Shown here piece after piece: positions 7,231-58,128 of a stretch of 64,000 bases of DNA; within the stretch, counting starts at the first letter, position 1, and the number at the start of each line of letters is the position of its first letter. The notes below the pieces were generated by a model that was not told where the DNA came from, did no database searches, and saw only the letters and a list, made by a program, of their open reading frames with translations. Made by a program: the position numbers and the translations under genes. The stretch comes from Chryseobacterium gleum (GTDB lineage Bacteria > Bacteroidota > Bacteroidia > Flavobacteriales > Flavobacteriaceae), in the NCBI GenBank assembly GCA_945897915.1, contig CAMDGB010000009.1, positions 41 to 64,040 of the forward strand, written 5' to 3'.

Positions 7231-7265
7231 GGGTATAGGGTGTGTGGTTTTGGGTAAAGGGGTTT
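7231..7265. repeat. Degenerate period-7 G-rich tandem array
   Basis: GGGTATA GGGTGTG TGGTTTT GGGTAAA GGGGTTT read directly. Confidence 0.6.
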
Positions 7266-7276
7266 TAAATTAAAAA

Positions 7277-7303
7277 TTACGATTTACGATTTACGATTTA
7301 CGA
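7277..7303. repeat. Heptamer tandem repeat (TTACGAT)x3 + TTACGA
   Basis: Perfect repeat read directly. Confidence 0.95.
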
Positions 7304-7410
7304 ATATTTAAATTGGGTAATTTTAACTATATAAGGCATATAAGTTAGTTTAAGGTTTGGGGAATGGGGTTTTAAATTATGAGTTGTTTATTTTCATTTG
7401 AATTTTTTAC

Positions 7411-7435
7411 ACCCCTAAAGTCCCCTCAAGGGGAC
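7411..7435. repeat. GC-rich palindrome ACCCCTAAA-GTCCCCT-CA-AGGGGAC (REP-like)
   Basis: Perfect 7-bp inverted repeat 7420-7426/7429-7435 in AT-rich intergenic DNA. Confidence 0.7.
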
Positions 7436-7457
7436 AATTCCTGCTATTGACTTTTTT

Positions 7458-7488
7458 ACTCATTGACTCATTGACTCATTGACTCATT
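7458..7488. repeat. Octamer tandem repeat (ACTCATTG)x3 + ACTCATT
   Basis: Perfect repeat read directly. Confidence 0.95.
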
Positions 7489-7559
7489 ACTTCCACGGCT
7501 TCGCCTGGTCAGTCCCGTTTTTGGGCCAACAATTTTTATTATAAACCTAGTTGGTTTAT

Positions 7560-8066
7560 TTATTCTTGTTGAAAAACCAATACGCCATCGCCTTCATACA
7601 ACTTGGTAATATGAAACGTGATGGTTTTTTGAATTTCGGTTTCAATTTTTGGTTTCAACTGTGCTAGGTACAATTGGTCAACTTCATCGCCTTCAATCAC
7701 TACATCTATTTGGCCCGAATCGATGCCTTTTGCGTAATCGCCTATTAAAAAAACACGGTCGATTGAACCAATTCTATCTACAATTGATTCAATAATATCA
7801 TCTAACCCAATGTGTTTTCTCACTATTTGTTGCAATAATGAGAAAAAAGGGTGTTGCTTATTTGCTTTATAAATAACTTTTGCTTCTTGCTCCTTGCGAA
7901 TAATAAACCCTGCTTCGGTCAGGTTGTTCAATTCTTTACGGATGGCGTTGGTGTTTTCGTGCATTTCTGTAGCTAGTCCTCTCAAATAGCCGTCATTTGC
8001 AGTATTAATGAAAAACTTCACTAATAAGCGCAATCTGGTTTTTGAGGTAATTAAATTCGCTAACAT
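7560..8066 (-). CDS. wHTH (ArsR-like) regulator fused to a minimal-nucleotidyltransferase-like domain
   Basis: N-terminal SKTRLRLL...YLRGLA...NAIRKELNNLTEAGFI wHTH; C-terminal VFLIGDYAKGIDSGQIDVVIEG resembles the MNT G[SD]xAxG...DxD motif. Confidence 0.7.
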   Translation of the reverse strand: MLANLITSKTRLRLLVKFFINTANDGYLRGLATEMHENTNAIRKELNNLTEAGFIIRKEQEAKVIYKANKQHPFFSLLQQIVRKHIGLDDIIESIVDRIGSIDRVFLIGDYAKGIDSGQIDVVIEGDEVDQLYLAQLKPKIETEIQKTITFHITKLYEGDGVLVFQQE

Positions 8067-8085
8067 ACATATTGGTTTTGAACAA

Positions 8086-8093
8086 CAAAAGTA
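8086..8093 (-). promoter_or_regulatory. Bacteroidota -7 promoter element (TACTTTTG)
   Basis: Matches TAnnTTTG, 19 nt upstream of the ATG at 8066. Confidence 0.6.
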
Positions 8094-8150
8094 CTCGTTT
8101 TTTTATATTAAAAAAAGATTTTACTAAAAATTAGATTCGTTTTCTAAATG

Positions 8151-8423
8151 TTAATTGATGGTGTTTTGGTTTTTAAGCCTTTTATTGAAGTTTTTTATGT
8201 GTTGTTTTAACATGTTTTTGTCTTCTATAGACAGCCTAACTCTTTTTATAGTTAGATTTTTATAGGTCACTTTTAGATAAAAGGTCCGGTACCATTTTTT
8301 AGTTACGCCTATTCGTTTTAAAAAATAAGTATCTTTAAACTCAATTGCTGTTTTACTAATGGTTGGCCAAAGTAGAATTGGTATACATTTTTTAAATATA
8401 ACAAATACTTCTTCTTCTGTCAT
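8151..8423 (-). CDS. Hypothetical basic protein, 90 aa
   Basis: ATG start with a TATATTTG -7 box at 8452-8459 on the same strand; no family recognised. Confidence 0.4.
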   Translation of the reverse strand: MTEEEVFVIFKKCIPILLWPTISKTAIEFKDTYFLKRIGVTKKWYRTFYLKVTYKNLTIKRVRLSIEDKNMLKQHIKNFNKRLKNQNTIN

Positions 8424-8659
8424 TTTGTAAATTTATGTGGGTTTATATCTACAAATATAAAAAAAAATAGTAGGCTATGCCGGTTATGTTAGGCCATCTT
8501 TAGCCCATCTATACTTTGGTTTTTACTTGTTACTGCGCCAAACGGCCCTAATTGACTTCAAATCAATACTTTAAATGTTTTAGGAATGTTTTATTTCGTA
8601 TAAAAAAGTTTGTTTTGCTTTCGCCTCTAAGAAAATTCAATTTATTTCAATATTCCTAA

Positions 8660-9141
8660 TCTTTCTCAGGAACAATTTACCTTGCTGGTTATAATGTAAC
8701 GCAAAACCGGGGCGTAATTTATGGGTTCGTCAAATGGAAGCGGGTTGCAATACTTCCTGAAACTTGTTAAATCAAAGAGTATTATAATTTAATAAGCAAA
8801 GAATTGGCTTCAAGTTTTGGCGTTACCAAAAATATTGATGCAAAAGTATAGGATATAAAAATTGAAATTGCCAATCTATTGATCTCGTTCATTAAAAACC
8901 ACCCCTGGTATCCTTCGCAAAAGATTACGAAAGAAAAAAACCACTATTCCCTACATTTTACCAGTGGCATCAATAGAAAATTGGTTGGTTAGGCTTGTGG
9001 AGGTGCAACATTAAAATAATTTATCCGGCCATTTTGCAAGAGTATTACAAAAAACCCCTGCGAAAAATACAATTAATTTTAATAAATCAAATCCGCTTAG
9101 TGTTCCGCAATATATTTGTAAATGCATCGGAAGAAATATAA
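8660..9141 (+). pseudogene. Degraded WYL/WCX-domain transcriptional regulator
   Basis: Manual translation gives GTIYLAGYNV...SFGVTKNIDAKV*DIKIEI...KNHPWYPSQKIT...GINRKLVG/WLGLWRCNIKIIYPAILQEYY, resembling the WYL C-terminal extension. Stops at 8768 and 8849 and a frameshift at 8981-8992. Confidence 0.6.
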
Positions 9142-9270
9142 TTTTTGAATTAAAATAAAAGATAAACTAAAAAAAACAGGACTATGTGTAAAATCAATGC
9201 CAATAATGTTTACTTTTAACTTCATTTTTAACCTGTGTACCCTAAAGTACTAGCTCAAAAATATTGAATT

Positions 9271-9996
9271 ATGTTTTGGATTTCAAAAAAAACTGTATCC
9301 TATAGTGAAGTATGGAAAGAGGGTTTTGTAGACCTACACAACCATTTATTACCCGGCATTGATGATGGAGCAAAAACCATAGCCGATACGCTTGACATGA
9401 TAGAAGCCATGCAAGAACTAGGTATTACTGAAGCCATTGCCACGCCGCACTCGTATCCGGGGATGTGGGCCAACACAAAAACCACCATCACCGAAGCCTA
9501 TGCAACAGTACCCCATGACTTTATTACCGGTTGCAGCAGTGAGTATTTTGCCGATAGTTCCTTAGTAGATCTGATGAACAACAAGGAATTATTGCCCTTA
9601 CCAAACAACCATTTACTGATTGAGTTTAGCATGATGAGCGCGCCCGTTTCGGGTTTGATGGATGTGCTTTTTACCTTAAAATTGAAAGGCTACCGTCTGA
9701 TTTTGGCTCACCCAGAGCGTTATTTGTACTGGGATACTAATTTGGTCATGTTTGAAGAATTGAAATCGTTTGATTTGGAATTCCAAATGAACGCGCTTTC
9801 TTTATTAGGCTTTTATGGCGATCGTTGCAAAAAAGTAGCCGAACATTTATTATCCGAAAATTACTACGGCTATCTGGGAACCGATTTCCACAACCTGCAC
9901 CACATTCACTACGCTAAAAATCATGCGTTTGCAGAAAAACACTTGAAAAACGTGATGCACTTGGTACAAGCCAATCAAACGTTTAGCTTAAAATAA
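9271..9996 (+). CDS. wzb: PHP-family tyrosine-protein phosphatase (CpsB/CapC/YwqE type)
   Basis: DLHNHLLPGIDDG, ATPH, LAHPERY, GTDFH motifs; adjacent to wzc. Confidence 0.92.
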   Translation: MFWISKKTVSYSEVWKEGFVDLHNHLLPGIDDGAKTIADTLDMIEAMQELGITEAIATPHSYPGMWANTKTTITEAYATVPHDFITGCSSEYFADSSLVDLMNNKELLPLPNNHLLIEFSMMSAPVSGLMDVLFTLKLKGYRLILAHPERYLYWDTNLVMFEELKSFDLEFQMNALSLLGFYGDRCKKVAEHLLSENYYGYLGTDFHNLHHIHYAKNHAFAEKHLKNVMHLVQANQTFSLK

Positions 9997-10010
9997 CACC
10001 CTTATACCAC

Positions 10011-10058
10011 AACAAAGAGCTACTATTGATCATCATGATCGCATAGTAGCTCTTTGTT
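10011..10058. terminator. Bidirectional intrinsic terminator between phosphatase and wzc
   Basis: 16-bp perfect inverted repeat AACAAAGAGCTACTAT / ATAGTAGCTCTTTGTT between convergent genes. Confidence 0.85.
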
Positions 10059-10070
10059 TTTTATAGTATA

Positions 10071-12467
10071 TTACGCCTTTTTAAACCATTTTTTTATGGT
10101 AGACCAAATACTTCTTTTATGACGTCTTTTGGTTTGATCTGCACCATAGCCATACCCGTAACCGTAGTTGTATTTGTAACTGTAGGAATAGCCATAGCCG
10201 TATTTATAACCATACCTTTTTTGCTGTCCTATATTGTTCAACACAATCCCTGCATTTTTGATTTTCTTCAAGGCTTGTAATTCGTTGATGAAGTGCAGCA
10301 AGTTCTTTTCAGTATGGTTGGCGCGGATCACAAAAACCATCATATCCGACAAGTTGGCAATCAAAGTGGTATCGGTTACCAATAAGGTTGGTGCGGTATC
10401 AACTAAAACATAGTCGTACTCTTTTTTCAATTCTTCCAGCAACAACTCAAAACGACCGTTGGACAACAACTCAGCCGGATTGGGCGGAATGGTTCCCGAA
10501 AAAATAAAATCCAATTTCAAATTATACTTCGCCCCTTTTTCGATGATATCGTCGAGTTGGGTCACCGTATCATGCAAATAATTGGTCACCCCTTTTTGGT
10601 GTCTGGAGATGTTCAACATCTTGTGCAACTGCGGATTTCTTAAATCGGCTCCTACCAAGATTACTTTTTTACCCAAGGTAGAAAATGTGATGGCCAAATT
10701 CATCGATACAAAGGTCTTCCCTTCCCCTTTGATGGTGGATGTGGTAAAGATGACTTGCGAAGCTTTGTTGTCTTTTATTAAGTAATTCAAATTGGTACGT
10801 AACATTCGGAACGCTTCGGATAAAACCGAACGGTCCAAATATTTGACCATTTTTTCGTCATCCGTAATGTGCGGAATCTCTGCAATCACCGGAATCTCTT
10901 TCACTACCGCTTGTACGTCTTTTTTACTGTGGATTTTAGTATCCATCATAAAATAGATATAAATAATTCCTAAAGGAATCCCTATCCCTAACAATAATGC
11001 GGCTAAATAAATAATGGCGTGTTTTGGACTGATGGGCACATCCACTGATTTGGCAAAATCCACCATCTTAATCGATGGATTGATGATCGCCAAGTTCACG
11101 GCAGCTTCTTCGCGTTTTTGCAATAAAATGATGTACAATGCTTCTTTTATTTCTTGTTGCCGCTCGATGGAACGAATGGCCTTTTCTTGAAACGGTAAGG
11201 CGGCATATTGTTGCGATTGCCCCAAACTGATCTGGCTGATGGCCGCAATTTTAGATTGCAACACTTTCATGTAAGTAGCTAAGGAAACCTTAATGTTTTT
11301 TTTGAGTTCCTTTTGGGTCTCTTTCAATTCCAACACGGCCGGGTGGTTTTCTCCTACCGATTGTAACAATTTCTGTTGTTTCAACACCAATTCGTTGTAT
11401 TGATCGATGATGGTAGCTACTTCCACTTGTTCTAATCCAATATTAGCAGGTAGCAGGTCATTGGATTTGGTTTTCCCCAAGGTTTCAATTAAGATTTCAC
11501 TCAATACCGCTTGGGTTTTGGCGGCATTCAATTCGCCTTTGGTGCCCGATTTTGAGGCCAAAAGCACTCCGGCATCGGCTTGAAAATTGGCCAAATTTTC
11601 TTTTTGCTTGTAATTGGCTTTATCTTTTTCTATCGAATCCAATTCTTTGAATAAAAATCCAAAACGTTCGTTGACAAAATTCACTGTTTTTTGGTGCACC
11701 AATCGGCGGTCATTAACCCCGTCTTGGTCAAATACTGCCGCCAGCATGTTGGCAATATCGGCGGCTTTTTTAGGATGGTTTGCCGAAACCGACAAGCGCA
11801 ACAATTCACTTTGCTTACCTACTGGCGTTACCGTTAATTGTGATTTCACCATTTGTATGGCGCGTTCTTTCTTTATTTTGACAATTTTATAATCGCCCAC
11901 TATTTTTTTAGCGGCAACTTCTTTTAAAAGTACGTAAAAGGGATGTCTTTTATAGGTGTACGTTGTTCCATAGCTTTTTAATTCTTTACTCCCTTCTATA
12001 TAGTATCCTTTTGGTGTCAATTCAAGGGAGAAGCCAATTCCTATTTCATTCACCTTTTCTGGTAGTTCGGTCCAATGTAGGGTAAACGGTGCCGTAGCGC
12101 CTATTTCAGTTTCCTTTATGTTCCCTTTGGTATAATATAGATTTTGAAGATCTAGGGTGTCCACTACTTTTTCAATCAACAAGGAAGATTGCAAGACCTC
12201 GGTTTCGTTTTCTAAATTAATTTTTCCTTTAGAAAAAAACGACATGGCATCCGTAGGCATTTTAAACCCTGAATTGTTGTTGTCTAATATTTTAACCACA
12301 TTGGAAGCTTGGTACACTTCTTGTGAATAGCGCAGGTAGAAGAAAGCAATCGTAAATGATAATATCGCGCCTAAAACAATCCAATGTAAAAAAGCGAGGT
12401 ATTTAAATATAAGCTCTTTAATATCTATCGAAGTAGACTGATTTTCTTGAAATTCTGATGACTGCAT
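10071..12467 (-). CDS. wzc: BY-kinase/polysaccharide co-polymerase Wzc
   Basis: Two TMs flanking a coiled-coil periplasmic region, Walker A GEGKT, VGADLR, VDTAP, C-terminal Tyr cluster. Confidence 0.95.
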   Translation of the reverse strand: MQSSEFQENQSTSIDIKELIFKYLAFLHWIVLGAILSFTIAFFYLRYSQEVYQASNVVKILDNNNSGFKMPTDAMSFFSKGKINLENETEVLQSSLLIEKVVDTLDLQNLYYTKGNIKETEIGATAPFTLHWTELPEKVNEIGIGFSLELTPKGYYIEGSKELKSYGTTYTYKRHPFYVLLKEVAAKKIVGDYKIVKIKKERAIQMVKSQLTVTPVGKQSELLRLSVSANHPKKAADIANMLAAVFDQDGVNDRRLVHQKTVNFVNERFGFLFKELDSIEKDKANYKQKENLANFQADAGVLLASKSGTKGELNAAKTQAVLSEILIETLGKTKSNDLLPANIGLEQVEVATIIDQYNELVLKQQKLLQSVGENHPAVLELKETQKELKKNIKVSLATYMKVLQSKIAAISQISLGQSQQYAALPFQEKAIRSIERQQEIKEALYIILLQKREEAAVNLAIINPSIKMVDFAKSVDVPISPKHAIIYLAALLLGIGIPLGIIYIYFMMDTKIHSKKDVQAVVKEIPVIAEIPHITDDEKMVKYLDRSVLSEAFRMLRTNLNYLIKDNKASQVIFTTSTIKGEGKTFVSMNLAITFSTLGKKVILVGADLRNPQLHKMLNISRHQKGVTNYLHDTVTQLDDIIEKGAKYNLKLDFIFSGTIPPNPAELLSNGRFELLLEELKKEYDYVLVDTAPTLLVTDTTLIANLSDMMVFVIRANHTEKNLLHFINELQALKKIKNAGIVLNNIGQQKRYGYKYGYGYSYSYKYNYGYGYGYGADQTKRRHKRSIWSTIKKWFKKA

Positions 12468-12473
12468 AAAAGC

Positions 12474-13253
12474 TTATAGTGATTTAATAATTAAGAAACT
12501 GGACAACAAAACGGATATTACAGAAATTAAATTTCCGGGATTTCCGATCAACCCCGCTGATTTTACTTTTGCAGTATTTGGGTCTATAATGATTACATCG
12601 TTTGGTTTTACAAAATAGTAAGGTGAAGCCAACCAATCATTTTTAGTTAAATCTACGGTGCCAAAAGTTTGTTTTCCATTTTCAGTTCGGATGATAGTAA
12701 TTTTTTTTCTAACACCGTTAATCGTTAAGTCTCCTGCTAAACCAAGGGCTTGCAACAACGTTAGATTGTTTTCATAAAAAGTAAATGTTCCTGGAGACGC
12801 TACTTCGCCTAAAACCGTAAATTTTGCATTTAATAACCTACAAACCACCACTGGATTTTTTAAAAAACCTTTGGTAACTAAAGCCTCTTGTATTTGTTTT
12901 TCTGCTTGTTCTAAGGTCAAACCAGCCATTTTTTGTACCCCCAAAACAGGAATGTTAATGTCGCCCTGGTTGCTTACCAAATAGCCTTGCAACTGCATTT
13001 GTGCGCCTTGCCCGTTATTTTGCAGTAGAGGATTTGTAATATTGTATGCTACCGCCAATTCGGGCACCTCGGTGGTTACTTTTACACTAATAATATCGTT
13101 GGGTTGAATATACATTTCAGACCATTTGAAGGGTAACGAGGTAGAAGGCGCACCTCCATTCAAATACAATAGGTCTTTTTTAGTGGCACATGAGGTTAAA
13201 CTCATGATAAAAACAACTATAAAAACAACGGGTATGAATTTTTTTAATTTCAC
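12474..13253 (-). CDS. wza: Polysaccharide export lipoprotein Wza
   Basis: Lipobox LTSC, IQPNDII, GYLV...GDINIPVLG, SLBB-like VLGEVASPG. Track start (TTG 13277) overlaps a TATATTTG box at 13275-13282, so GTG 13253 is preferred. Confidence 0.92.
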   Translation of the reverse strand: MKLKKFIPVVFIVVFIMSLTSCATKKDLLYLNGGAPSTSLPFKWSEMYIQPNDIISVKVTTEVPELAVAYNITNPLLQNNGQGAQMQLQGYLVSNQGDINIPVLGVQKMAGLTLEQAEKQIQEALVTKGFLKNPVVVCRLLNAKFTVLGEVASPGTFTFYENNLTLLQALGLAGDLTINGVRKKITIIRTENGKQTFGTVDLTKNDWLASPYYFVKPNDVIIIDPNTAKVKSAGLIGNPGNLISVISVLLSSFLIIKSL

Positions 13254-13459
13254 TTTAAAATAAATTTGGTATTGCAAATATAGTTTTTTAATTTAAAACT
13301 AAAAACTATTAATTTTGAATGCTTTACCAATTTTTTTTTAAAAGAAATTCGAATAAACTGTTTTTTTGGAGCGCTTTTAAGATTTTAGCAAAGAATAAAA
13401 TTGCTATTGTGCAGAGTAAATTCTAGAAATATTAAATTGAAACACTTGAAAACGCAAAA

Positions 13460-14368
13460 TTATATTTTTATTGAATCATAATACTCAATTGTTTTTTGCA
13501 CCGCCGTTTCTGTATCAAAAGGCATTTTATTCATTTCAAGGGCATTTTTAATTTTAGCTCCATTTATGATTCTGGAATGAGAAATTTCAATAAGTTTTTT
13601 AGAATTAAATTCCCATTTAAACATATCGCCTATTTTGGCAAAAAGACTCAATATTCCTTTAGGTACTTTAATAATTTTAGCTTTTTTGTCGAAAACGGCC
13701 GCAATCCAATTGACCAATTGTGTAGTTACAATTGGTTCGTTGTCTGTAACATTATAAATTCCTGATGGTACCGCTGTTTTTTCTGAAATTTGAGCAATAA
13801 TTTCCGTAAGGTTGTCGATATAGCAAAAAGATTGTTTCGTATCAAAAACACCAAAAAACCAAGGAAATTTTTTACAGAAACTAAACGTGTCGTATAGCAA
13901 GCTTTTGGTTTCTCTGCCATAAACTGGAGCCACACGCAATATAATGGCTCTTTTCCCTTCTGGCAAAACTTGCTTCAAAATAAATTGCTCCGCATCAAAT
14001 TTTGATTGAAGGAAAGGATTTGTAGAATTTTCGTTGGCGTCTTCAGGAATTTCTGAAATTTGTTTGTCTATTAATTCTGTCGTGCTTAAAAAGATAAACG
14101 TTTTGGCGTTTGAACTTAAAAAATATCTAAATAATTTAGACGTAAGTTCTGTATTTACTCTAAAATACTCTTCGTCAAAAGCGCTGTCTTGAGGATTTAG
14201 ATTAATTGCCGCCAAATGAATAATAGTTTCCGTTTCTAAAGGCATCATTTTGTGCCAATTTTGAAATCGAAGGGAAATTGACTTGTTTTTTTTTGATTTT
14301 GAATTGAAATATTTGGTAAGATTTTGTCCGATATATCCTGTTGTCCCCGTTAATACAATTAGACTCAT
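13460..14368 (-). CDS. Atypical NAD-dependent epimerase/dehydratase (SDR)
   Basis: GTTGYIG Rossmann motif; the expected YxxxK reads FLQSK. Confidence 0.75.
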   Translation of the reverse strand: MSLIVLTGTTGYIGQNLTKYFNSKSKKNKSISLRFQNWHKMMPLETETIIHLAAINLNPQDSAFDEEYFRVNTELTSKLFRYFLSSNAKTFIFLSTTELIDKQISEIPEDANENSTNPFLQSKFDAEQFILKQVLPEGKRAIILRVAPVYGRETKSLLYDTFSFCKKFPWFFGVFDTKQSFCYIDNLTEIIAQISEKTAVPSGIYNVTDNEPIVTTQLVNWIAAVFDKKAKIIKVPKGILSLFAKIGDMFKWEFNSKKLIEISHSRIINGAKIKNALEMNKMPFDTETAVQKTIEYYDSIKI

Positions 14369-14519
14369 ATTTATTTTTAATTAAGAATGCGAAAGTACAA
14401 AATAATTTATGCCTAAAATGGTTTTCAGTGTCATATTGTTTTATAAACTATTTTATTTAAAAAAAATTCAGTATTTTGAAGTAGTAATTAATAAAAATTC
14501 AAGGTTTTAAATTAAGTAT

Positions 14520-14978
14520 TTAACGATTTATAATTAATCGGATTCCTAAAGATTTTATTATTAAAGTTACTTTGTTTGTTGAAACTTTATCCACTACTGC
14601 CATTTGGTTTTTAAATGGCCCTTCATTAATTTGAATTTGCGCATTGGTCGTCCAGGTTTCTATGTCAACTTTTACTACCGGCGTGGCCAATTGTGTTTTT
14701 AATGCCTCTATTTCTTGGGATTTAATTATTGCTGGTTTGCCTAACCAAAACACATATTGCACTACACCAGCTACTTGAAATACGTCCTTTCGATTTGCTT
14801 CCTCAATTTTTACAAATACATAAGAAGGAATTAGGGGTGATTCTACCTTTTTTTTTCGATCAGACCATTGTTTAAGGGTGGTTACTATCGGACAATATAC
14901 CTCTATACCAATAGCAGCAAGGTTTTCAGCCACCTTTTTTTCATTACGTGGTTTTGTATATAAAGCAAACCATTCCAT
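14520..14978 (-). CDS. upxY: UpxY-family (NusG-like) antiterminator
   Basis: WFALYTKPRNEKK NGN start, VESPLIPSYVFV, C-terminal KOW-like INEGPFKN; heads the glycan locus. ATG 14978 preferred over track start 15005. Confidence 0.92.
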   Translation of the reverse strand: MEWFALYTKPRNEKKVAENLAAIGIEVYCPIVTTLKQWSDRKKKVESPLIPSYVFVKIEEANRKDVFQVAGVVQYVFWLGKPAIIKSQEIEALKTQLATPVVKVDIETWTTNAQIQINEGPFKNQMAVVDKVSTNKVTLIIKSLGIRLIINR

Positions 14979-15042
14979 CTTGAATACATTTAATAAAATA
15001 AGCACCTGGTAAAGCTGCTTTTCATTTTTATTGTTTATACTA

Positions 15043-15059
15043 CAAAGATATCAAATATA
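15043..15059 (-). promoter_or_regulatory. Two tandem -7 boxes upstream of upxY (TATCTTTG, TATATTTG)
   Basis: + strand CAAAGATA 15043-15050 and CAAATATA 15052-15059. Confidence 0.55.
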
Positions 15060-15189
15060 TAGAATAACTGAAAAAAATAGGCGCGTTTTACTTGTCATTG
15101 GTGTTAATTGTCAGTTAATTTAATAGCAAATAGTTATATCTTTATCAATAATTAAGAAATACTTATTATTTTTATAAAAAATATCGAAA

Positions 15190-16059
15190 ATGTCTATTCA
15201 TACATCATCTATAATTGCCGGCACAATGAATTGGGGCAAATGGGGAAGAAATTTCAACAAAACTGCTATCCAACAAGTTATAGAAACTTTCATTACAGAA
15301 AAAATCACCACGTTTGACCATGCAGATATTTATGGTGGTTATACTACGGAAGCCGATTTTGGAAACGCTTGGTCAGCCATGAATATTGACAGAAATCAAG
15401 TGCAATTTATTACCAAATGTGGTATAAAAATGGTTTGTGAAGAAAGAGATTACTCCGTCAAACATTACGATTATACAAAAGAACACATTATTTGGAGCGT
15501 AGAAAATTCATTAAAAAATTTACAAACCGATTATATTGATGTGCTTTTATTACATAGGCCAAGTCCGCTTATGGAAACAGATGTAATAGCTGAAGCTGTT
15601 TCTGAACTTAAAAATTCAGGTAAAATACGGGCTTTTGGCTTGTCCAACTTTACGCCTAGCCAAACCGATTTAATTAAAAAATATAGTTCCGTCTGCTGCA
15701 ATCAAATTCAGTTTTCCGCTACGCATTTACAACCTATGTTAAATGGTGAATTGGATTATATGATGCAGCACAACATTCAGCCTATGGCATGGAATCCTTT
15801 AGGGTCAGTATATAAAGAAGTTATTCCACAAACCATTCGATTAAGAGATTTACTTCAAAAATTAACTAAAAAATATGGTGTTTCTGATGATTTGCTCCTT
15901 TTGGCTTGGGTTTCAAAACATCCTGCAAATATTCAACCAGTTGTAGGCACTACACAAATTGATCGCATCAAAAACTTGAAAAAATTAAAGGGTTTTGAAT
16001 TGGAATTAGAAGATTGGTTTGCCGTTTGGACCGAAAGTATTGGAACAAAAATTCCATAA
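15190..16059 (+). CDS. Aldo/keto reductase (YdhF-like)
   Basis: FDHADIYGGY, ITKCGI, LQTDYIDVLLLHRP, GLSNF motifs. Confidence 0.92.
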   Translation: MSIHTSSIIAGTMNWGKWGRNFNKTAIQQVIETFITEKITTFDHADIYGGYTTEADFGNAWSAMNIDRNQVQFITKCGIKMVCEERDYSVKHYDYTKEHIIWSVENSLKNLQTDYIDVLLLHRPSPLMETDVIAEAVSELKNSGKIRAFGLSNFTPSQTDLIKKYSSVCCNQIQFSATHLQPMLNGELDYMMQHNIQPMAWNPLGSVYKEVIPQTIRLRDLLQKLTKKYGVSDDLLLLAWVSKHPANIQPVVGTTQIDRIKNLKKLKGFELELEDWFAVWTESIGTKIP

Positions 16060-16062
16060 ATT

Positions 16063-20117: not shown

Positions 20118-20126
20118 CGAGAAACC

Positions 20127-28449: not shown

Positions 28450-28455
28450 ATAAAA

Positions 28456-28476
28456 CTACGATTTGGGATTTACGAA
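28456..28476. repeat. Short degenerate heptamer array CTACGAT TTGGGAT TTACGAA
   Basis: Same unit family as 7277 and 32659. Confidence 0.5.
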
Positions 28477-28479
28477 TTA

Positions 28480-28505
28480 AAAAACTCAGACTTTTCTGAG
28501 TTTTT
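28480..28505. terminator. Bidirectional terminator
   Basis: AAAAACTCAGA-CTTT-TCTGAGTTTTT between convergent genes. Confidence 0.85.
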
Positions 28506-28507
28506 TA

Positions 28508-32636: not shown

Positions 32637-32652
32637 TGTTTCACGTGGAACC
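32637..32652. promoter_or_regulatory. parS site (TGTTTCACGTGGAACC)
   Basis: 15/16 to the 34607 site read on the reverse strand. Confidence 0.85.
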
Positions 32653-32658
32653 TGAAAA

Positions 32659-32722
32659 TTACGATTTTTGATTTTTGATTTACGAAACGTTTAAATCTCA
32701 AATCCAAAATCTCAAATCGTAA
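32659..32722. repeat. Inverted pair of heptamer arrays
   Basis: TTACGAT TTTTGAT TTTTGAT TTACGAA, 8-nt spacer, ATCTCAA ATCCAAA ATCTCAA ATCGTAA. Confidence 0.85.
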
Positions 32723-32728
32723 ATACAT

Positions 32729-38439: not shown

Positions 38440-38505
38440 TTTAAAATTCAAATTTCCAAATTTTGATGTATTTGGAATTTGGAATTTTACATTTGGAATT
38501 TTAAA
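38440..38505. repeat. Inverted pair of TTTGGAA-type heptamer arrays
   Basis: TTTAAAA TTCAAA T TTCCAAA ... TTTGGAA TTTGGAA TTTTACA TTTGGAA TTTTAAA. Confidence 0.7.
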
Positions 38506-38532
38506 ATAGTATCTTTGACAAAAATTATTGTG

Positions 38533-48427: not shown

Positions 48428-48451
48428 TATTTTTAAAACATTACTTTTATG

Positions 48452-48475
48452 AATTCCGTCACCAGTGGCGGAATT
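48452..48475 (+). terminator. Hairpin after rpiB
   Basis: AATTCCGTCAC-CA-GTGGCGGAATT. Confidence 0.7.
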
Positions 48476-48498
48476 TATATTTTATATTAGTTTTCACA

Positions 48499-50631: not shown

Positions 50632-50671
50632 TTTGTTCTATATTTGAAAAAAAACTAAAAAAAATAAAAAT

Positions 50672-51016
50672 ATGGCAGTTTCTGAATTAATATTAATTTT
50701 AATAATAATAGTTCCAATAATAATAAGCTTTTGGAAACTTTTTGAAAAAGCAGGTAAACCAGGATGGGCAATTTTATTGCCTTTTTACAATATTATTGTT
50801 CAATTAGAAATAATAAGAAAACCGTGGTGGTGGGTATTATTAATATGTATTCCGTTTATAGGTTTTATTTGGCATATTTGGACATTAAATTTATTTGTAA
50901 AAAGCTACGGTAAAAAAGAAGGATTTACATTAGGGTGTCTTTTTCTTCCGTTTATCTTTTTACCTATTTTAGCTTTTGATAAATCATCAAAATATATTTA
51001 TGATTTGAATTCCTAA
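50672..51016 (+). CDS. DUF5684-like small membrane protein
   Basis: WKLFEKAGKPGWA..LPFYN pattern, four hydrophobic segments. Confidence 0.75.
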   Translation: MAVSELILILIIIVPIIISFWKLFEKAGKPGWAILLPFYNIIVQLEIIRKPWWWVLLICIPFIGFIWHIWTLNLFVKSYGKKEGFTLGCLFLPFIFLPILAFDKSSKYIYDLNS

Positions 51017-51067
51017 ATAGATGAAAATTAAATAAAAAATCTAAAAAAAAATTTCTAAATTTAAAAT

Positions 51068-51099
51068 AAAAATGTCCCGAAAGATATCGGGACATTTTT
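51068..51099. terminator. Bidirectional terminator with TCCCGA/TCGGGA core
   Basis: AAAAATGTCCCGA-AAGATA-TCGGGACATTTTT between convergent genes. Confidence 0.85.
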
Positions 51100-51289
51100 A
51101 TTTTTTATCATTTTCTAAATCATCTTCTTTTTTAGTTGCTGCAGCTTCATCCTCTCCTTTAGCTGCTTTTTTAAATTCTTTTATGCCGCTTCCTAAACCT
51201 TTCATTAACTCTGGAATTTTTTTTCCTCCAAACATTAACAAAATAAAGGAAACAATCAATATCATTTCGAACGGTCCTATTCTTCCCAT
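51098..51289 (-). CDS. tatA: Twin-arginine translocase subunit TatA/E
   Basis: TM helix, [23 protein letters not shown]. Confidence 0.95.
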
Positions 51290-51374
51290 AACAATTAATT
51301 ATTAATTTATACTACAAAGGTACATAAAAAATCAAAACACAAATAAAATTATTCTTTTTTATTGATATAACTTG

Positions 51375-51420
51375 TCCCGAATCTCGGGATTTACTAATTG
51401 GCACATTGACTAATTGTATT
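51375..51420. repeat. TCCCGA-ATC-TCGGGA palindrome followed by ATTG octamer array
   Basis: Palindrome 51375-51389; ATTGGCAC ATTGACTA ATTGTATT 51397-51420. Confidence 0.65.
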
Positions 51421-51443
51421 ATATTTGTATAAAATCAGGCGAT

Positions 51444-51923
51444 ATGTCTCAAAAAAGGTTAAAATTTCAGGCGCTAAAGCAAAAATTAGTAAGCAAAAGA
51501 CGTTTCATTATTTATAATGAAGACACTTTAGAAGAATCATTTTCATTAAAACTGACCTTAATGAATGTATTTGTTGCGTCTTCTTTAAGTGCAATTTTAA
51601 TTGTTTTTGTCACCACATTTATTATTGCTTTTACACCTTTACGTGAATATATTCCAGGTTATGCCTCTACACAATTAAAAAAACAAGCTGCGGCTTTGAC
51701 CATAAAATCAGATTCGTTATTGAAGGTCACAAAAGCGAATAACGCCTATATTCAATCTGTTAAATCTGTTTTAAATGGCGATTTAGAATATGCCAAATTA
51801 AACAAAGATTCCATTAAAGTGGCAGCAAACGCTACAGAAAAAGTTGATGTAAAAGTTTCAGAAAAAGAGTTGCGACTTAGAAATGAAGTACAAAAACTCA
51901 CTCAAAAAAAAGCTAAAAAATAA
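51444..51923 (+). CDS. Membrane protein resembling the N-terminal part of Bacteroidota M23 peptidases; no catalytic domain
   Basis: NEDTLEE..SLKLTLMNV, TM, AFTPLREYIPGY, coiled coil; no HxGxD or HxH motifs. ATG 51444 follows a TATATTTG box at 51420-51427. Confidence 0.6.
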   Translation: MSQKRLKFQALKQKLVSKRRFIIYNEDTLEESFSLKLTLMNVFVASSLSAILIVFVTTFIIAFTPLREYIPGYASTQLKKQAAALTIKSDSLLKVTKANNAYIQSVKSVLNGDLEYAKLNKDSIKVAANATEKVDVKVSEKELRLRNEVQKLTQKKAKK

Positions 51924-51934
51924 ATCCGACTATT

Positions 51935-53419: not shown

Positions 53420-53513
53420 ATGAAGAATTTATTAACTTTCTATACACAAAAAGCGAACGAAAACGGACTAAAGAATAAATTTATTACCTTTGTAGGTGAT
53501 ATAATAAAAATTA

Positions 53514-55199: not shown

Positions 55200-55203
55200 G
55201 AAC

Positions 55204-56160
55204 ATGAGCACAAATTCTCAAGAGCAGGAAATTGATTTAAGCCAAATCGGTAAAAGTATTTCAAAAGGGTTTAAAAAAGGAATAAATAAGTGTTTCGATT
55301 TGTTGTTTTTTATACAAAAGAAACTAGTAATTGTGTTTGTTTTATTGGTTTTTGGAGGCGGTTTAGGTTTTTATGTAGACAAAGAACCAAATTACACTAA
55401 TGACATTACTGTTTTTCCAAATTTTGGGAGTAACGAGTATTTGTACGATAAAATAAATTTAATTTCTTTAAAATTAAAAGAAAAAGACGAAGCGTTTTTT
55501 ACTAAAATAGGAATTAAAAACATTAAAGATTTTATTTCTATTGAAATTCAACCCGTAAACGGAATTTATAATTTTATAAATTCGGAAAGTCAAAAAAACA
55601 ATTTTGAACTGGTTAAATTAATGGCTGAGGATGGTGATTTAGAAAAAATAATTCAGGATCAAACTACCAGTAAAAACTACTATTTACACGGCATAAATAT
55701 TAAAACAGCCATAGCTTATCAACAAAAAGACTTAATAGACCCTATATTAAACTATTTACAGCAGTCGGAATATTTTATTAAACTTCAGAAAATTCAACAA
55801 AATAATTTAGAAGAAAAATTAGTAGCTAATAAGTTATTAATTACTCAGATTGATCAAATTGTTTCAAGTTTAAGTCAAAATAAAATAGGAAGCAGTGTTT
55901 CAATATCAGAAAACACAGGTATAAATGATCTTATTCAAAAAAAGGACAATTTAATTTTTGAAAACCAAAAATTAGCCACCAACCGATTAGAGTTTGAAAA
56001 AATAATTAAAGACCAAGATATAGTATCAAACCAAATGAATACAAGCGGAGCAAACAACAAAGTGAAATTTATTTTACCGTTATTATTTGTTTTATTTTAT
56101 TTATTATGGTATTGGTTTTCAAAAGTATATAAACAACAAAAACAACGCATTCAAGCATAA
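55204..56160 (+). CDS. Wzz-like chain-length determinant
   Basis: EIDL N-terminal motif, one TM near each terminus, coiled-coil periplasmic region; stop overlaps rfbB start. Confidence 0.55.
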   Translation: MSTNSQEQEIDLSQIGKSISKGFKKGINKCFDLLFFIQKKLVIVFVLLVFGGGLGFYVDKEPNYTNDITVFPNFGSNEYLYDKINLISLKLKEKDEAFFTKIGIKNIKDFISIEIQPVNGIYNFINSESQKNNFELVKLMAEDGDLEKIIQDQTTSKNYYLHGINIKTAIAYQQKDLIDPILNYLQQSEYFIKLQKIQQNNLEEKLVANKLLITQIDQIVSSLSQNKIGSSVSISENTGINDLIQKKDNLIFENQKLATNRLEFEKIIKDQDIVSNQMNTSGANNKVKFILPLLFVLFYLLWYWFSKVYKQQKQRIQA

Positions 56161-57167
56161 TGAAAAATATTTTAGTTACTGGCGGAGCCGGGTTTATTGG
56201 CGCGAACTTTGTTCCTTATTTTATAGTAAATAATCCTGATTATCATTTAATAAATTTAGACGCATTAACTTATGCAGGAAATTTAGAAAACATATCAGAA
56301 GTGGAAAATCATGAACGTTATACCTTTGTAAAAGGTGATATTGTAGATGGAGAATTCATAAAAAACCTATTCGAAAAATATCAATTTCATGATGTAATTC
56401 ATTTTGCCGCAGAAAGTCATGTTGATAATTCTATTTCTGGTCCAGAAGCGTTTATTAAAACCAATGTTTTAGGAACTTTTAATTTATTAGATACCGCCAG
56501 AAAACTTTGGATGACAGCACCTAATCAATACAAACCAGAATTTATAAATGCCCGTTTTCATCATGTTTCTACTGATGAGGTTTATGGAACATTAGGCGAA
56601 ACAGGTTTATTTGAAGAAACTACGCCTTATGCGCCAAACAGCCCATATTCAGCATCAAAAGCAGGTTCAGACATGATTGTTCGAAGCTATTTTCATACCT
56701 ACGGCATGAATGTGGTTACCTCAAATTGTTCCAATAATTACGGTCCAAAACAACATAACGAAAAGTTAATCCCTACTATAATTCGTAAAGCATTAACTGG
56801 AGAAAACATTCCAATTTATGGTGACGGAAAGAATGTACGTGATTGGTTATATGTTTTAGACCATTGTAAAGGAATTGAATTGGCTTTTAAAACCGGTAAA
56901 TCTGGTGAAACATACAATATTGGAGGAAGAAACGAACGTAATAATTTACAAATTGTAGATACCGTTTGTATCATCTTAAACCAATTAAAACCAAAAGCAA
57001 CAGGTAAGTACCAAGACCAAATTACCTTTGTAAAAGACCGCCCTGGTCACGATTTAAGATATGCTATTGACGCTACTAAAATCGAAATAGAACTAGGTTG
57101 GAAAGCAGATGAAAATTTCGAAACAGGAATTAAAAAAACAATTGAATGGTATATTAATAAGTTTTAA
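56160..57167 (+). CDS. rfbB: dTDP-glucose 4,6-dehydratase
   Basis: TGGAGFIG, HFAAESHVDNS, VSTDEVYG, YSASK, DRPGHDLRY. Confidence 0.97.
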   Translation: MKNILVTGGAGFIGANFVPYFIVNNPDYHLINLDALTYAGNLENISEVENHERYTFVKGDIVDGEFIKNLFEKYQFHDVIHFAAESHVDNSISGPEAFIKTNVLGTFNLLDTARKLWMTAPNQYKPEFINARFHHVSTDEVYGTLGETGLFEETTPYAPNSPYSASKAGSDMIVRSYFHTYGMNVVTSNCSNNYGPKQHNEKLIPTIIRKALTGENIPIYGDGKNVRDWLYVLDHCKGIELAFKTGKSGETYNIGGRNERNNLQIVDTVCIILNQLKPKATGKYQDQITFVKDRPGHDLRYAIDATKIEIELGWKADENFETGIKKTIEWYINKF

Positions 57168-57173
57168 GCTAGG

Positions 57174-57226
57174 AGTTAATAGTTGATAGTTCAACTTTTC
57201 ACTTTTCACTTTTCACTTTTCACTTT
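57174..57226. repeat. Head-to-head heptamer arrays (AGTTRAT)x2-AGTT / (ACTTTTC)x4-ACTTT
   Basis: Read directly between the rfbB stop and rfbA start. Confidence 0.9.
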
Positions 57227-57233
57227 AAAATTT

Positions 57234-58091
57234 ATGAAAGGAATTATACTAGCCGGTGGCTCAGGAACACGTTTACATCCTTTAACTTTAGCGGTAAGTA
57301 AACAATTAATGCCAATTTACGACAAACCCATGATTTATTATCCATTATCAACTTTGATGTGGGCAGGAATCAACGAAATATTAATTATTTCTACACCGCA
57401 CGATTTGCCTTTATTCCAACATTTATTAGGCGACGGAAGTAGTTTAGGATGTAAATTTGAATACGCAGTACAAGAGCATCCGAACGGATTGGCCGAAGCA
57501 TTTATTATTGGAAAAGAATTTGTAGGTAACGACAAAGTTGCTTTAGTTTTAGGCGACAATATTTTTTACGGAACAGGATTGGCCGAATTATTACAAGCAA
57601 ACAATAATCCAGACGGTGGAATTGTTTACGCTTATCATGTACACGATCCTGAACGTTACGGCGTAGTAGAATTTGACACAACCGGAAAAGTGCTTTCAAT
57701 TGAAGAAAAGCCAACAAGGGCAAAATCAAATTATGCAGTTCCGGGGATTTATTTCTACGATAATTCTGTAATAGAAATTGCGGCAAATATACAACCAAGT
57801 CACCGCGGCGAATTAGAGATTACCGATATCAACAAAGCTTATCTAGAACAAGGAAAATTAAAAGTAAGTATTTTAGACAGAGGAACTGCGTGGTTAGACA
57901 CCGGAACATTTCAATCGTTAATGCAAGCCGGACAGTTTGTTCAGGTAATTGAAGAACGCCAAGGATTAAAAATCGGAGCCATTGAAGAAGCGGCATACAA
58001 AATGGGTTTCATCAATGCAGACCAGTTGAAAAAACTAGCCGAACCTTTATTGAAAAGCGGTTACGGAACACATTTAATAAGTATTATTTAA
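57234..58091 (+). CDS. rfbA: Glucose-1-phosphate thymidylyltransferase
   Basis: [44 protein letters not shown]. The track's 17-codon extension is the repeat array. Confidence 0.97.
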
Positions 58092-58096
58092 AATTA

Positions 58097-58128
58097 ATTG
58101 GCACATTGCCACATTGTCAAATTGAATA
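58097..58128. repeat. Octamer array ATTGGCAC ATTGCCAC ATTGTCAA ATTGAATA
   Basis: Fills most of the rfbA-rfbC gap; 14 nt identical to 51395-51408. Confidence 0.75.

Follow-up and report, generated by a model that had tools for sequence, protein, structure and literature searches.

Short tandem arrays of 7- or 8-nucleotide units recur at gene junctions in a 64,000-nucleotide window (the whole stretch of DNA analysed) of a Flavobacterium genome. What are these arrays, and how do they relate to the small genes that, according to a preliminary description of this DNA, such arrays often flank in Bacteroidota? In our view, they probably form one repeat system and correspond to the arms at the ends of small foldback cassettes. 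The arrays of the window resemble gene-less or residual copies of cassettes whose small selfish genes are of a type first seen inside 23S rRNA. All the arrays cited in the preliminary description were found in the window sequence, and the features are as follows.

7231-7264, no strand: weak G-rich heptamers (GGGTATA GGGTGTG TGGTTTT GGGTAAA GGGG), from the sequence, without open reading frame (ORF).
7277-7303, no strand: solo heptamer array, TTACGAT x3.9 (TRF).
7354-7369, no strand: another G-rich stretch, GGTTTGGGGAATGGGG, similar in type to 7231-7264 (sequence).
7409-7435, no strand: C-rich arm-like hairpin, ACACCCCTAAAGTCCCCTCAAGGGGAC (sequence; hairpin in the predicted fold).
7446-7488, no strand: solo octamer array, ATTGACTC x5.4 (TRF).
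28456-28479, no strand: three degenerate heptamers, ACTACGA TTTGGGA TTTACGA, at a convergent junction (sequence).
28479-28507, strand +: ordinary intrinsic-terminator hairpin adjoining the preceding array (fold -15.5 kcal/mol, z = -5.0).
32659-32724, strand -: ORF-less foldback 3' of mnmG (sequence, fold).
38443-38503, no strand: ORF-less foldback, AAATTCAAATTTCCAAATT opposing ATTTGGA x4 (sequence; fold z = -2.5, -3.2).
51395-51419, no strand: ATTG-anchored octamers TAATTGGC ACATTGAC TAATTGTA, 5' of a -7-like box.
57174-57226, strand +: solo heptamer arrays, AGTTNAT x3 then ACTTTTC x4.7 (TRF; weak fold).
58095-58124, strand +: ATTG-anchored octamers ATTGGCAC ATTGCCAC ATTGTCAA ATTGAATA, at the rmlA-rmlC junction.

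The hairpin at 28479-28507 is an ordinary terminator and does not belong to the repeat system. Facing arrays had been described at three loci, and two of these are the only clear inverted pairs of the window. At 32659-32724, TTACGA/TTTTTGA heptamers (32659-32685) oppose TCTCAAA/TCGTAAA heptamers (32693-32724) across a 7-nt loop, and the sense RNA folds with -20.1 kcal/mol (z = -3.6). At 38443-38503, the two arrays span about 38443-38464 and 38470-38503, lie within the divergent DUF4175/gltX promoter region, and adjoin a -7 box (GTATCTTTG, 38509-38517). The third candidate pair, made up of the G-rich stretch at 7231 and the C-rich stretch at 7409, is weak. Within 1.5 kb, no inverted partner was found for the TTACGAT array at 7277-7303, the fold of which is not significant, or for the octamer array at 7446-7488. 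The window contains no complete cassette.

Arrays of period 7 or 8 are present in about 10% of the intergenic regions of this genome. The genome-wide scan against shuffled sequence that the preliminary description called for gave strong enrichment, with other periods at chance. Exact arrays of at least three copies number 23 for period 7 and 6 for period 8, against 0 in block shuffles; when mismatches are tolerated, the counts are 49 vs. 1 and 11 vs. 0.5, respectively. Among 1204 intergenic regions, scored by at least 17 self-matches out of 24 at a given period, 90 passed for period 7 (11 when shuffled), 31 for period 8 (7), and 26 for period 14 (8), and the remaining periods (3-6 and 9-13) stayed near expectation. 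That enrichment is confined to periods 7, 8, and 14 speaks against one alternative explanation, namely plain microsatellites, in which replication slippage on AT-rich spacers gives rise to 7-8-nt arrays and lengthens them independently at each site, and small genes share the same permissive spacers. Many arrays are indeed solo and perfect, very long expansions exist (L049, L052, L020), arrays occur at every junction type, and Coxiella strains differ in heptamer number (PMC4990558). Nevertheless, slippage alone accounts poorly for units, and a 14-mer, that recur across loci and in the cassette arms of relatives, for anchors that are conserved while spacer bases vary, or for inverted pairs of fixed polarity associated with specific gene families in many phyla. 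We consider this explanation unlikely. Between four conspecific contigs no change in copy number was seen, a weak test since the segment is nearly identical in all of them.

The cassettes themselves are found in relatives. A complete cassette consists of an ORF of 110-135 aa between two inverted arms, and lies in the gap that follows a host gene's stop codon and precedes the start codon of the next gene, oriented like both neighbours (ORF co-oriented in 27/27, 25/28, and 63/75 cases). The ORF belongs to one of four families: the TIGR02436/PF05635 four-helix-bundle proteins (4HB, S23p/Avd-like), the GxxExxY PD-(D/E)xK nucleases, DUF559, and the GIY-YIG nucleases. In the genus, arms have about 3-5 tandem units of 7-10 nt each, with about 4-5 units of 7-8 nt beside 4HB genes and about 3 units of 8-10 nt beside GxxExxY genes; each unit keeps a short conserved anchor while its other bases vary. 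Inverted periodic arms bracket nearly all of the 31 4HB and 30 GxxExxY genes inspected in the genus. The link of inverted arrays with TIGR02436, GxxExxY, and small DUF559 genes, as given in the preliminary description, holds in the genus. An arm-pair score of at least 14 was reached by 21/31 true pairs for 4HB and 22/30 for GxxExxY, vs. 1/31 and 1/30 mismatched pairs; among 80 loci from many phyla, the figures are 44/80 and 0/80. Period 7 applies to 56/75 arms (median copy number, 4.4), and the arms are polar, the 5' arm being G-rich (28/34) and the 3' arm C-rich (35/41). Heptamer arms accompany the 4HB family in 10 or more phyla; in one cyanobacterium, they are STRR-like arrays. Arm type follows the protein lineage, not the junction: the arms of L051 and L052, which encode sister proteins, are similar although the junctions differ, and relatives of the 4HB protein of G056 occupy another junction with unchanged arm type. 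At one junction, the ORF has a dN/dS of 0.16 with dS about 1.4 and the arms are still periodic and inverted, a long residence that we count in favour of the cassette reading.

The solo arrays of the window use the same unit vocabulary as cassette arms. The heptamers at 7231-7264 are similar to the G-rich arms seen in DUF559-type cassettes (arms ...GGGGTTGGGGGTGTGT), and the hairpin at 7409-7435 closely matches the 3' arms of DUF559 cassettes in relatives (3' flanks of L281, L285, and L286); we read it as a putative ORF-less relic. The TTACGAT unit also builds arrays at at least six further loci of the genome, and the units of 38443-38503 also make the arms of 4HB cassettes L251-L253. At G000 C1:129545-129760, octamers of the 51395-51419 type are arranged as an inverted pair, and they also make up the arms of the G056 cassette. 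The 14-mer TAATTGGCACATTG is the same at 51395 and 58095, and is included in the 3' arm of the cassette found at rmlB-rmlA in G056.

Comparison of orthologous junctions, also proposed in the preliminary description, shows filled and unfilled alleles. The rmlB-rmlA junction is occupied here by the arrays at 57174-57226 only. The closest relative (G056) has a 4HB cassette there (TIGR02436, 5e-28), and G010 a cassette of a different 4HB lineage; in G006 and G011, the insert is a GxxExxY gene, and in G022 the junction is tight. Cassettes of at least three lineages have colonised it independently. In both G056 and G022, a GIY-YIG gene (PF01541, 8.7e-16) occupies the orthologue of the 28450 junction. 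At rmlA-rmlC, G019 has a homologous octamer array, G056 a GTTTCAA foldback, and six species including G022 a tight junction of 5-12 nt. An array frequency at background level, or orthologous junctions devoid of inserts, would have spoken against the preliminary description; we found enrichment and inserts. Loss of the ORF leaving both arms behind is also seen. At groES-groEL in this genome, the ORF is gone and both arms are kept. The spacer aligns with both arms of filled alleles and with the sequence that follows their ORF, which favours loss over a virgin site. At sufC-sufD, a solo array has the unit that the filled allele carries in its 5' arm. Filled, tight, and ORF-less alleles occur at one and the same junction. 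We read the ORF-less foldbacks and solo arrays of the window as gene-less derivatives or arm relics.

The arrays had previously been called footprints or targets of an insertion process, an interpretation that is supported in part; a role as targets finds no support. If arrays, and inverted pairs above all, were landing pads for cassettes or insertion sequences, the repeated colonisation of rmlB-rmlA would be explained, as would the IS110- and IS481-family elements lying at fixed distance from paired octamer sites in Geobacter (PMC2700814). However, a cassette brings its own arm type to a new junction, tight junctions without arrays (5-12 nt) are common in sister species, and the ORF-less groES-groEL allele contains post-ORF sequence. 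Moreover, the ACTTTTC units of the unfilled rmlB-rmlA junction bear no relation to the arms found in filled alleles; they differ in type from those of G056, so that the array is not simply the remainder of that cassette either, a point against the cassette reading. Target sites are thus very unlikely. The idea that the process diversifies surface-glycan operons also finds no support: arrays are found at mnmG, gltX, groES-EL, hemB, and sufCD as well, and 8/35 junctions are flagged on the contig of the window vs. about 12% genome-wide.

The make-up and placement of the arrays also count against the cassette reading. Most well-formed arrays of the genome are solo, without inverted partner within 1.5 kb and without fold. 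Also, arrays are about as frequent at divergent (11.7%) and convergent (11.2%) junctions as at co-directional ones (12.7%), whereas complete cassettes prefer co-directional pairs.

Could the arrays serve the host genes? Directly 3' of the mnmG stop codon, visual reading of 30 species showed a species-specific foldback in about 24, a solo array in one, and neither in five; the position is retained while the sequence has turned over completely between species. This retention, together with a sense fold stronger than the antisense one, would suit RNA-level housekeeping hairpins, i.e., terminators, attenuators, or REP-like mRNA-stabilising stem-loops unrelated to selfish genes. But the foldback is missing in the five species, the stems are long and AT-rich, without the GC stem and U-tract seen in the terminator at 28479-28507, and solo arrays, promoter-region arrays, and ORF-bearing versions are left unexplained. 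We give this reading little credence. A protein-binding role, as iterated sites for a chromosomal or regulatory protein or as promoter-upstream elements, is somewhat better placed, though still doubtful. At gltX, the -7 box (GTATCTTTGC) is conserved and arrays stand immediately 5' of it in most of the 30 species, with ACTTCTA units common to six; the octamers at 51395-51419 also precede a -7-like box. Anchor positions are conserved, and the modal 4-5 units per arm would suit a pentameric S23p. Geobacter has inverted pairs at gene junctions (24, 21, and 8 are listed), each made of 3-5 tandem 7-9-mers, and these were proposed as sites for IHF/HU or an unknown global regulator (PMC2700814). Against this, units vary from locus to locus within a genome, and at a given locus from species to species, so no single sequence-specific protein fits; arrays also lie at convergent junctions and within operons, and this genome has only two 4HB genes, one truncated, for roughly 100 arrays.

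Returning to the cassette reading, the closest known relatives are the 23S rRNA intervening sequences (IVS) excised by RNase III, as in Leptospira, Coxiella, Xanthomonas, and Brucella. They share a PF05635/TIGR02436 ORF (match to PDB 2gsc, 6.7e-22) in sense orientation to the host transcript, and terminal inverted repeats that form a stem no shorter than about 28 bp. In Coxiella, the IVS carries an S23p ORF and a 28-bp stem for which RNase III cleavage is established experimentally, and its arm includes tandem heptamers in strain-variable number (PMC4990558). In contrast to IVS, which sit in 23S helices, the present elements lie between protein-coding genes, have arms made wholly of tandem 7-8-mers, and include GxxExxY, DUF559, and GIY-YIG cargo as well as ORF-less and solo forms. 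By analogy, one may propose that a cassette is transcribed with its host operon, that its arms would base-pair over about 30-40 bp with the ORF looped out, and that RNase III, the gene of which is present in this genome, would cleave the stem; with such cutting, the host could tolerate the insert. In modelled whole cassettes, the outer arms are paired in both MFE and centroid structures (z = -3.4 and -3.0). Against the cassette reading, arm mismatches show no G:U excess on the sense strand (61 sense vs. 104 antisense), and arm complementarity within a cassette (0.75) barely exceeds arm similarity between species (0.68), so that strict compensatory covariation is not demonstrated. Spread would be rare, with ORF and arms moving as a unit, perhaps by nuclease-triggered copying, and unit number could change by replication slippage. 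We looked for target-site duplications, a transposase, and a reverse transcriptase, and found none, which also counts against the cassette reading. The data are compatible with the transposase-independent process suggested earlier; the proposed repeat-writing finds no support, the genome having no reverse transcriptase.

Other systems resemble the cassettes in part. Like cyanobacterial STRR, the arrays are intergenic tandem heptamers with several unit families per genome; they differ by including octamers and by AT-rich units. STRR arrays are defined in heterocystous cyanobacteria by specific units. The literature searched contained no link between STRR and S23p-type genes; in a Microcoleaceae genome, we find inverted arrays flanking 4HB genes, e.g., GAACAGG x5 opposing CCCTGTT x4. 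The multicopy sequences of Geobacter metallireducens (classes 1-3) share inverted pairs at variable distance, solo four-heptamer elements (H4) beside paired sites, and positions 3' of one gene, 5' of the next, and within operons; the excerpt of PMC2700814 from which this is taken mentions no ORF cargo and has insertion sequences landing beside sites. REP/BIME, RAYT, and MITEs are also short intergenic palindromic multicopy repeats, often in operons, with non-autonomous forms. However, a Y1/RAYT transposase is absent from this genome, target-site duplication is not seen, and what the copies have in common is their unit vocabulary, not the sequence of the whole element; their arms are internally tandem. 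Free-standing homing endonuclease genes are likewise small GIY-YIG or PD-(D/E)xK ORFs between conserved genes, present or absent between relatives and with junction-specific lineages, but here inverted tandem-repeat arms flank the genes, the nuclease cargo is putative, and the 4HB protein, which is the most frequent cargo, cannot be recognised as a nuclease. Finally, the 4HB cargo is distantly homologous to Avd of diversity-generating retroelements (NF033474 1.3e-5, PF22296 2.5e-7, both below cut-offs), a homology noted too in PMC10053308; a reverse transcriptase, a template repeat, and a variable repeat are all absent from this genome.

The draft genome that carries the window comprises 2.14 Mb (31.5% G+C, 99.9% complete). 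All arrays cited in the preliminary description are present in the sequence, and the excess of periods 7 and 8 over a shuffled background, on which its reading turned, is found genome-wide in exact, mismatch-tolerant and intergenic scans. Counting exact arrays with three or more copies gives 23 for period 7 and 6 for period 8, with none in block shuffles. When mismatches are tolerated, the counts for genome and shuffle are 49 vs. 1 (period 7) and 11 vs. 0.5 (period 8). The intergenic scan covered 1204 regions with a window of 24 self-comparisons and retained the best period at a score of at least 17/24. Periods 7, 8, and 14 are best in 90, 31, and 26 of these regions, vs. 11, 7, and 8 after shuffling; periods 3–6 and 9–13 show no excess over expectation in the same 1204 regions. 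Therefore, about one intergenic region in ten carries such an array, which matters for annotation, as does the overlap of some arrays with promoters or gene ends. Rates are 12.7% at co-directional, 11.7% at divergent, and 11.2% at convergent junctions. On the contig of the window, 8 of 35 junctions are flagged, which is no convincing excess, and the proposed link to glycan operons is not seen: flagged junctions include those of mnmG, gltX, and other housekeeping genes. STRR arrays, the heptamer arrays of cyanobacteria, are known, and their hallmark (intergenic heptanucleotide tandem arrays, with several unit families per genome) is found in this genome. However, the STRR host is a filamentous cyanobacterium with canonical units, whereas the present host is a Flavobacterium whose units differ from these and are rich in AT.

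Tandem arrays in the window (positions in nucleotides)
7231: weak array
7277-7303: clean array of TTACGAT, 3.9 copies
7446-7488: clean array of ATTGACTC, 5.4 copies
28456: weak array
32659-32685 and 32693-32724: facing pair
about 38443-38464 and 38470-38503: facing pair
51395-51419: ATTG-anchored octamers
57194-57226: clean array of ACTTTTC, 4.7 copies, with three copies of AGTTNAT directly before it
58095-58124: ATTG-anchored octamers

The octamer arrays at 51395-51419 and 58095-58124 have an exact 14-mer, TAATTGGCACATTG, in common. Facing inverted arrays had been described at three loci; the pairs at 32659 and 38443 are genuine, and the arrays at 7231 and 28456 are weak. Fold prediction shows that 32659-32724 and 38443-38503 are inverted repeats able to form a long stem. 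No long-stem inverted repeats were found by partner search and folding for the solo arrays, those devoid of an inverted partner, at 7277, 7446, 57194, and 58095. The foldbacks do not have the form of intrinsic terminators, made of a short GC-rich stem and a U-tract, as their stems are long, AT-rich, and built of repeat units; among the tested elements, only 28479-28507 fits that description. Inspection of the window arrays for a loop ORF of the S23p/PF05635/TIGR02436 family showed that none of them encloses an ORF, and the window also lacks nuclease ORFs of the GxxExxY or GIY-YIG kind. Because no array encloses an ORF, the window loci are ORF-less derivatives and not full cassettes, a cassette being a small ORF flanked by two inverted arms of tandem 7-10-nt units between host genes. 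Only gene-less forms are present in the window.

Orthologous junctions with and without inserts, which the preliminary description had anticipated, are indeed seen among related genomes, for example between rmlB and rmlA. In the closest genome sampled (G056), which is about 82-86% identical to the window and syntenic with it over 16-59.5 kb, this junction holds a 528-nt insert encoding a 121-aa TIGR02436 protein (5e-28) between octamer arms, and the 14-mer TAATTGGCACATTG lies in the 3' arm. This protein belongs to the four-helix-bundle S23p/Avd-like family (4HB). A different 4HB lineage occupies the junction in G010, with an arm made of nine copies of CAGTTATG, and GxxExxY genes occupy it in G006 and G011. 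In G016 the junction carries other arrays and in G021 a plain hairpin, whereas in G022 it is as short as 7 nt. The ACTTTTC array of this genome is unrelated to the cassette arms found at this junction in relatives. Between rmlA and rmlC, a homologous array of ATTG octamers is found in G019 and a GTTTCAA foldback in G056, and the junction is reduced to 5-12 nt in six species, G022 included. At the convergent junction 28450-28507, a GIY-YIG gene (102-103 aa) with inverted flanks is present in G056 (C35:205958-206263) and G022 and absent here. Downstream of mnmG, reading of the junction sequences shows a foldback in about 24 of 30 species, none in 5, and a solo array in 1; these foldbacks are made of species-specific units and lie between the stop codon and a conserved palindrome.

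For the cytidylyltransferase gene at 6807-7223, a search of 60 other genomes of the genus gave no match at the DNA level, which makes orthologue comparison of the adjoining junction (7224-7559) impossible, and synteny with the closest relative begins only at about 16 kb. Positions 1-16000 are therefore a strain-specific polysaccharide locus. Four conspecific contigs carry identical arrays, and the segment is 100% identical even in a strain of 95% identity, since it lies within a recombination tract, so that the comparison has no power for unit-number variation, be it slippage or that of a phase-variable contingency locus. Over window positions 57120-58180, conspecific contig L300 is 95.4% identical, with all 101 mismatches in rmlB and rmlC; the stretch that spans rmlA and the two array-bearing spacers has 100% identity and is a recombination tract, with ends about 50 nt beyond the two array junctions.

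The statement that such arrays flank TIGR02436-like, GxxExxY, and DUF559 genes is borne out in the genus, where the flanks are inverted arrays of period-7/8 type. The TIGR02436 family is present in 41/41 genomes of the genus, with 1-10 copies each. Each of the two copies of this genome, both outside the window, lies between inverted, anchored arrays of period 8/9. Visual inspection of the flanks of 31 4HB genes showed, in essentially every case, two complementary arms (5' and 3'), each of 3-5 tandem 7-9-mers. The 5' arm begins at most a few bases from the upstream stop codon and the 3' arm finishes equally close to the downstream ATG. The same layout is found for 30 GxxExxY genes (PF13366, PD-(D/E)xK) and for seven small DUF559 genes, the arms of the latter being GC-rich; the GIY-YIG gene likewise has inverted arms. 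Arm complementarity was scored with mismatched 5'/3' arm pairs as the control. At a score of at least 14, 21/31 true 4HB pairs were retained vs. 1/31 mismatched pairs, and 22/30 vs. 1/30 for GxxExxY. In 27/27 (4HB) and 25/28 (GxxExxY) cases, the ORF runs in the same direction as the genes on either side.

Some junctions that carry a cassette ORF in other species lack it here. The groES-groEL spacer aligns to both outer arms and to the post-stop sequence of filled alleles, which indicates that the ORF was lost and the arms were retained. Between sufC and sufD, a solo array of four AAAGTCN units is built from the unit that G048 uses in the 5' arm of its filled allele. As this array (C6:82640-82670, outside the window) encodes the last eight SufC residues, arrays can reach into reading frames. 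In the window, 7409-7435 matches a DUF559 cassette 3' arm almost base for base. The second 4HB gene of this genome (L032, C27:21846-22413) is N-terminally truncated (85 aa); it retains an array of 12 TCTAA-anchored units at one end and, at the other, a short arm anchored on TTAGA, and looks like a cassette in decay. Separately, an ORF-less inverted pair of AATTGGCAC-type octamers, 174 nt apart, was noticed at C1:129545-129760. Its interior holds a TCCCGAAATTCGGGA hairpin, whose only other copy in the genome is at 51375-51389, beside a window array.

The 4HB tree groups proteins by junction, with a nine-row clade (99/98 support) and further 4-row and 3-row clades alike; residence is therefore mostly vertical. 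At the nine-row junction, dN/dS is 0.16 with a saturated dS of about 1.4, and the arms are still periodic and inverted. An exception is L052, sister to L051, which sits at another junction with similar arms. Moreover, in at least seven species, proteins 60-67% identical to that of the G056 rml cassette occupy another junction, and they keep AATTAGNN/AATGTGCC arms, as in G056. In more distant relatives the arms are of ATTTGRAA/TTTCCAAAT type, a vocabulary also found in the window foldback 38443-38503. In these cases, the arms travel with the protein.

These features recall the intervening sequences (IVS) of 23S rRNA, which have a sense-oriented S23p ORF and a terminal stem, parts shared by the cassettes described here. 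In Coxiella, the IVS carries a sense S23p ORF, a 28-bp terminal stem cut by RNase III, and tandem heptamers whose number varies between strains (PMC4990558); RNase III excision has been demonstrated by experiment in Coxiella and in other hosts. Here, an S23p-family loop ORF is present at two other loci of this genome and at rmlB-rmlA of G056. However, 23S IVS sit inside a 23S rRNA helix, whereas all loci here are between protein-coding genes. In whole cassettes, the outer arms pair in both the MFE and the centroid structure (z = -3.4 and -3.0), with a stem of roughly 30-40 bp as judged from dot-bracket output, and the genome has an RNase III gene (rnc). From this folding, the rnc gene, and the parts shared with homologous 23S IVS, we infer that the elements are IVS-type cassettes residing in mRNA spacers. 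The stem would insulate the insert or remove it at the RNA level, possibly by RNase III excision as in rRNA, and inserts would be tolerated for this reason. This suggests a way for bacteria to tolerate inserts in essential operons (groES-groEL, sufCD). What is new here is that an element of IVS type lies outside rRNA, that its arms consist of tandem repeats, and that its cargo varies in kind.

The mnmG foldback is predicted at -20.1 kcal/mol as sense RNA vs. -15.6 antisense. The G:U asymmetry (61 sense vs. 104 antisense wobble pairs) gives no support for an RNA-level stem, in a test made noisy by alignments that ran into coding sequence. At one junction compared in 17 species, where all arms are CWRAG-anchored octamers, complementarity within cassettes (0.75) vs. 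similarity across species (0.68) is too weak a difference for compensatory change. The account is further weakened in that most high-identity arrays of this genome are solo and without a fold, and solo arrays also occur outside transcribed co-directional spacers. For these reasons, and since the ACTTTTC array does not match the cassette arms of its junction, slippage, protein binding, and target-site roles are live explanations for the solo arrays.

The observation of the preliminary description is thus confirmed and its interpretation supported in part. As to mobility, its repeat-writing or retro-element idea is rejected, there being no RVT_1 gene in the genome. Y1/RAYT transposases, IS110 transposases, and reverse transcriptases were sought in this nearly complete draft and none was found. 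Mobilisation by RAYT or IS110 was thus rejected, and the cognate transposase expected of a MITE/REP-RAYT system is missing as far as Y1/RAYT is concerned. Comparison of tight with filled junctions, where both were available, revealed no target-site duplication, and array copies share units and one 14-mer, not whole-element identity. The nuclease cargo of relatives' cassettes (GxxExxY, PF13366, 4.4e-39; GIY-YIG, PF01541, 8.7e-16) suggests homing-like copying, with putative cleavage of the empty allele. As with free-standing homing endonuclease genes, the nuclease ORF is present or absent between conserved genes of related genomes.

Literature searches returned no paper linking the arrays to S23p or GxxExxY cassettes in general. 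A cas-gene survey found PF05635 genes between cas genes (PMC3936711), and homology of the 4HB cargo to Avd has been noted (PMC10053308). The genome paper of Geobacter metallireducens describes 49 four-heptamer elements at gene junctions, together with inverted pairs formed by 3-5 tandem 7-9-mers, and its authors read them as regulator or IHF sites (PMC2700814). In that genome, IS110- and IS481-family ISs adjoin many paired tandem-octamer sites (supplement 5), at a fixed distance according to the authors. This placement hints that such arms may serve other mobile elements as landing sites.

A scan restricted to a single genome for each species yielded 80 loci, distributed over Bacteroidota, Acidobacteriota, Firmicutes, Chloroflexota, Planctomycetota, Cyanobacteria, Desulfobacterota, Elusimicrobiota, Ignavibacteriae, Verrucomicrobiota, Actinobacteria, and Betaproteobacteria. 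The inverted-arm architecture recurs across them, mostly with heptamers (facing units such as GGTCAGT-type/CTGATCA-type, GGTTNAC/ACCGTGA, and TGTTAGC/CTAATTG), and arm pairs exceed the score threshold at 44/80 loci vs. 0/80 for mismatched pairs. Detected arms have period 7 in 56/75 cases, with a median of 4.4 units and a mode of 4-5. Polarity is consistent, as 28/34 of the 5' arms are rich in G and 35/41 of the 3' arms are rich in C. One cyanobacterium of the Microcoleaceae has STRR-like arrays on either side of its 4HB genes, for example GAACAGG x5 facing CCCTGTT x4. A rather unlikely extension is that all tandem heptamer/octamer arrays, including STRR and the Geobacter paired sites, would derive from a single ancient class of foldback cassettes found throughout bacteria, whose arms they would be; a pentameric S23p/Avd-like protein would read the modal 4-5 units of an arm, one per subunit, and solo arrays would be footprints. 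If so, recognition of repeats by a protein, with no conventional transposase involved, would drive the maintenance of cassettes, their mobility, or RNA processing. The foldback-cassette reading would bring together STRR arrays, Coxiella IVS heptamers, Geobacter paired “regulator sites,” and the unexplained multi-copy TIGR02436/GxxExxY genes as one object, a small hairpin-armed cassette between genes in many phyla, and it gives the old question of the nature of STRR-type arrays a concrete, testable handle.

Finally, some features beside the arrays deserve mention. The DUF5684 gene at 50672-51016 (114 aa), missing at the syntenic position in G056 and G022, has no periodic arms but only a terminator (51063-51104), and is therefore not a cassette of this kind. 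Two arrays end directly at Bacteroidetes-type -7 promoter boxes, 38509-38517 (GTATCTTTG, upstream of gltX and kept in most of 30 species) and 51420-51427 (TATATTTG), and thus take up the -33 region of these promoters; upstream of gltX, arrays adjoin the conserved box in most of the 30 species. A near-palindrome, GTTTCACGTGGAAC (32638-32651, CACGTG core), lies in the interval from the mnmG foldback to the methyltransferase gene downstream. Reading of the 30 junctions shows it kept in nearly all species, including those without the foldback, and it probably serves as a regulator site or as a processing signal.
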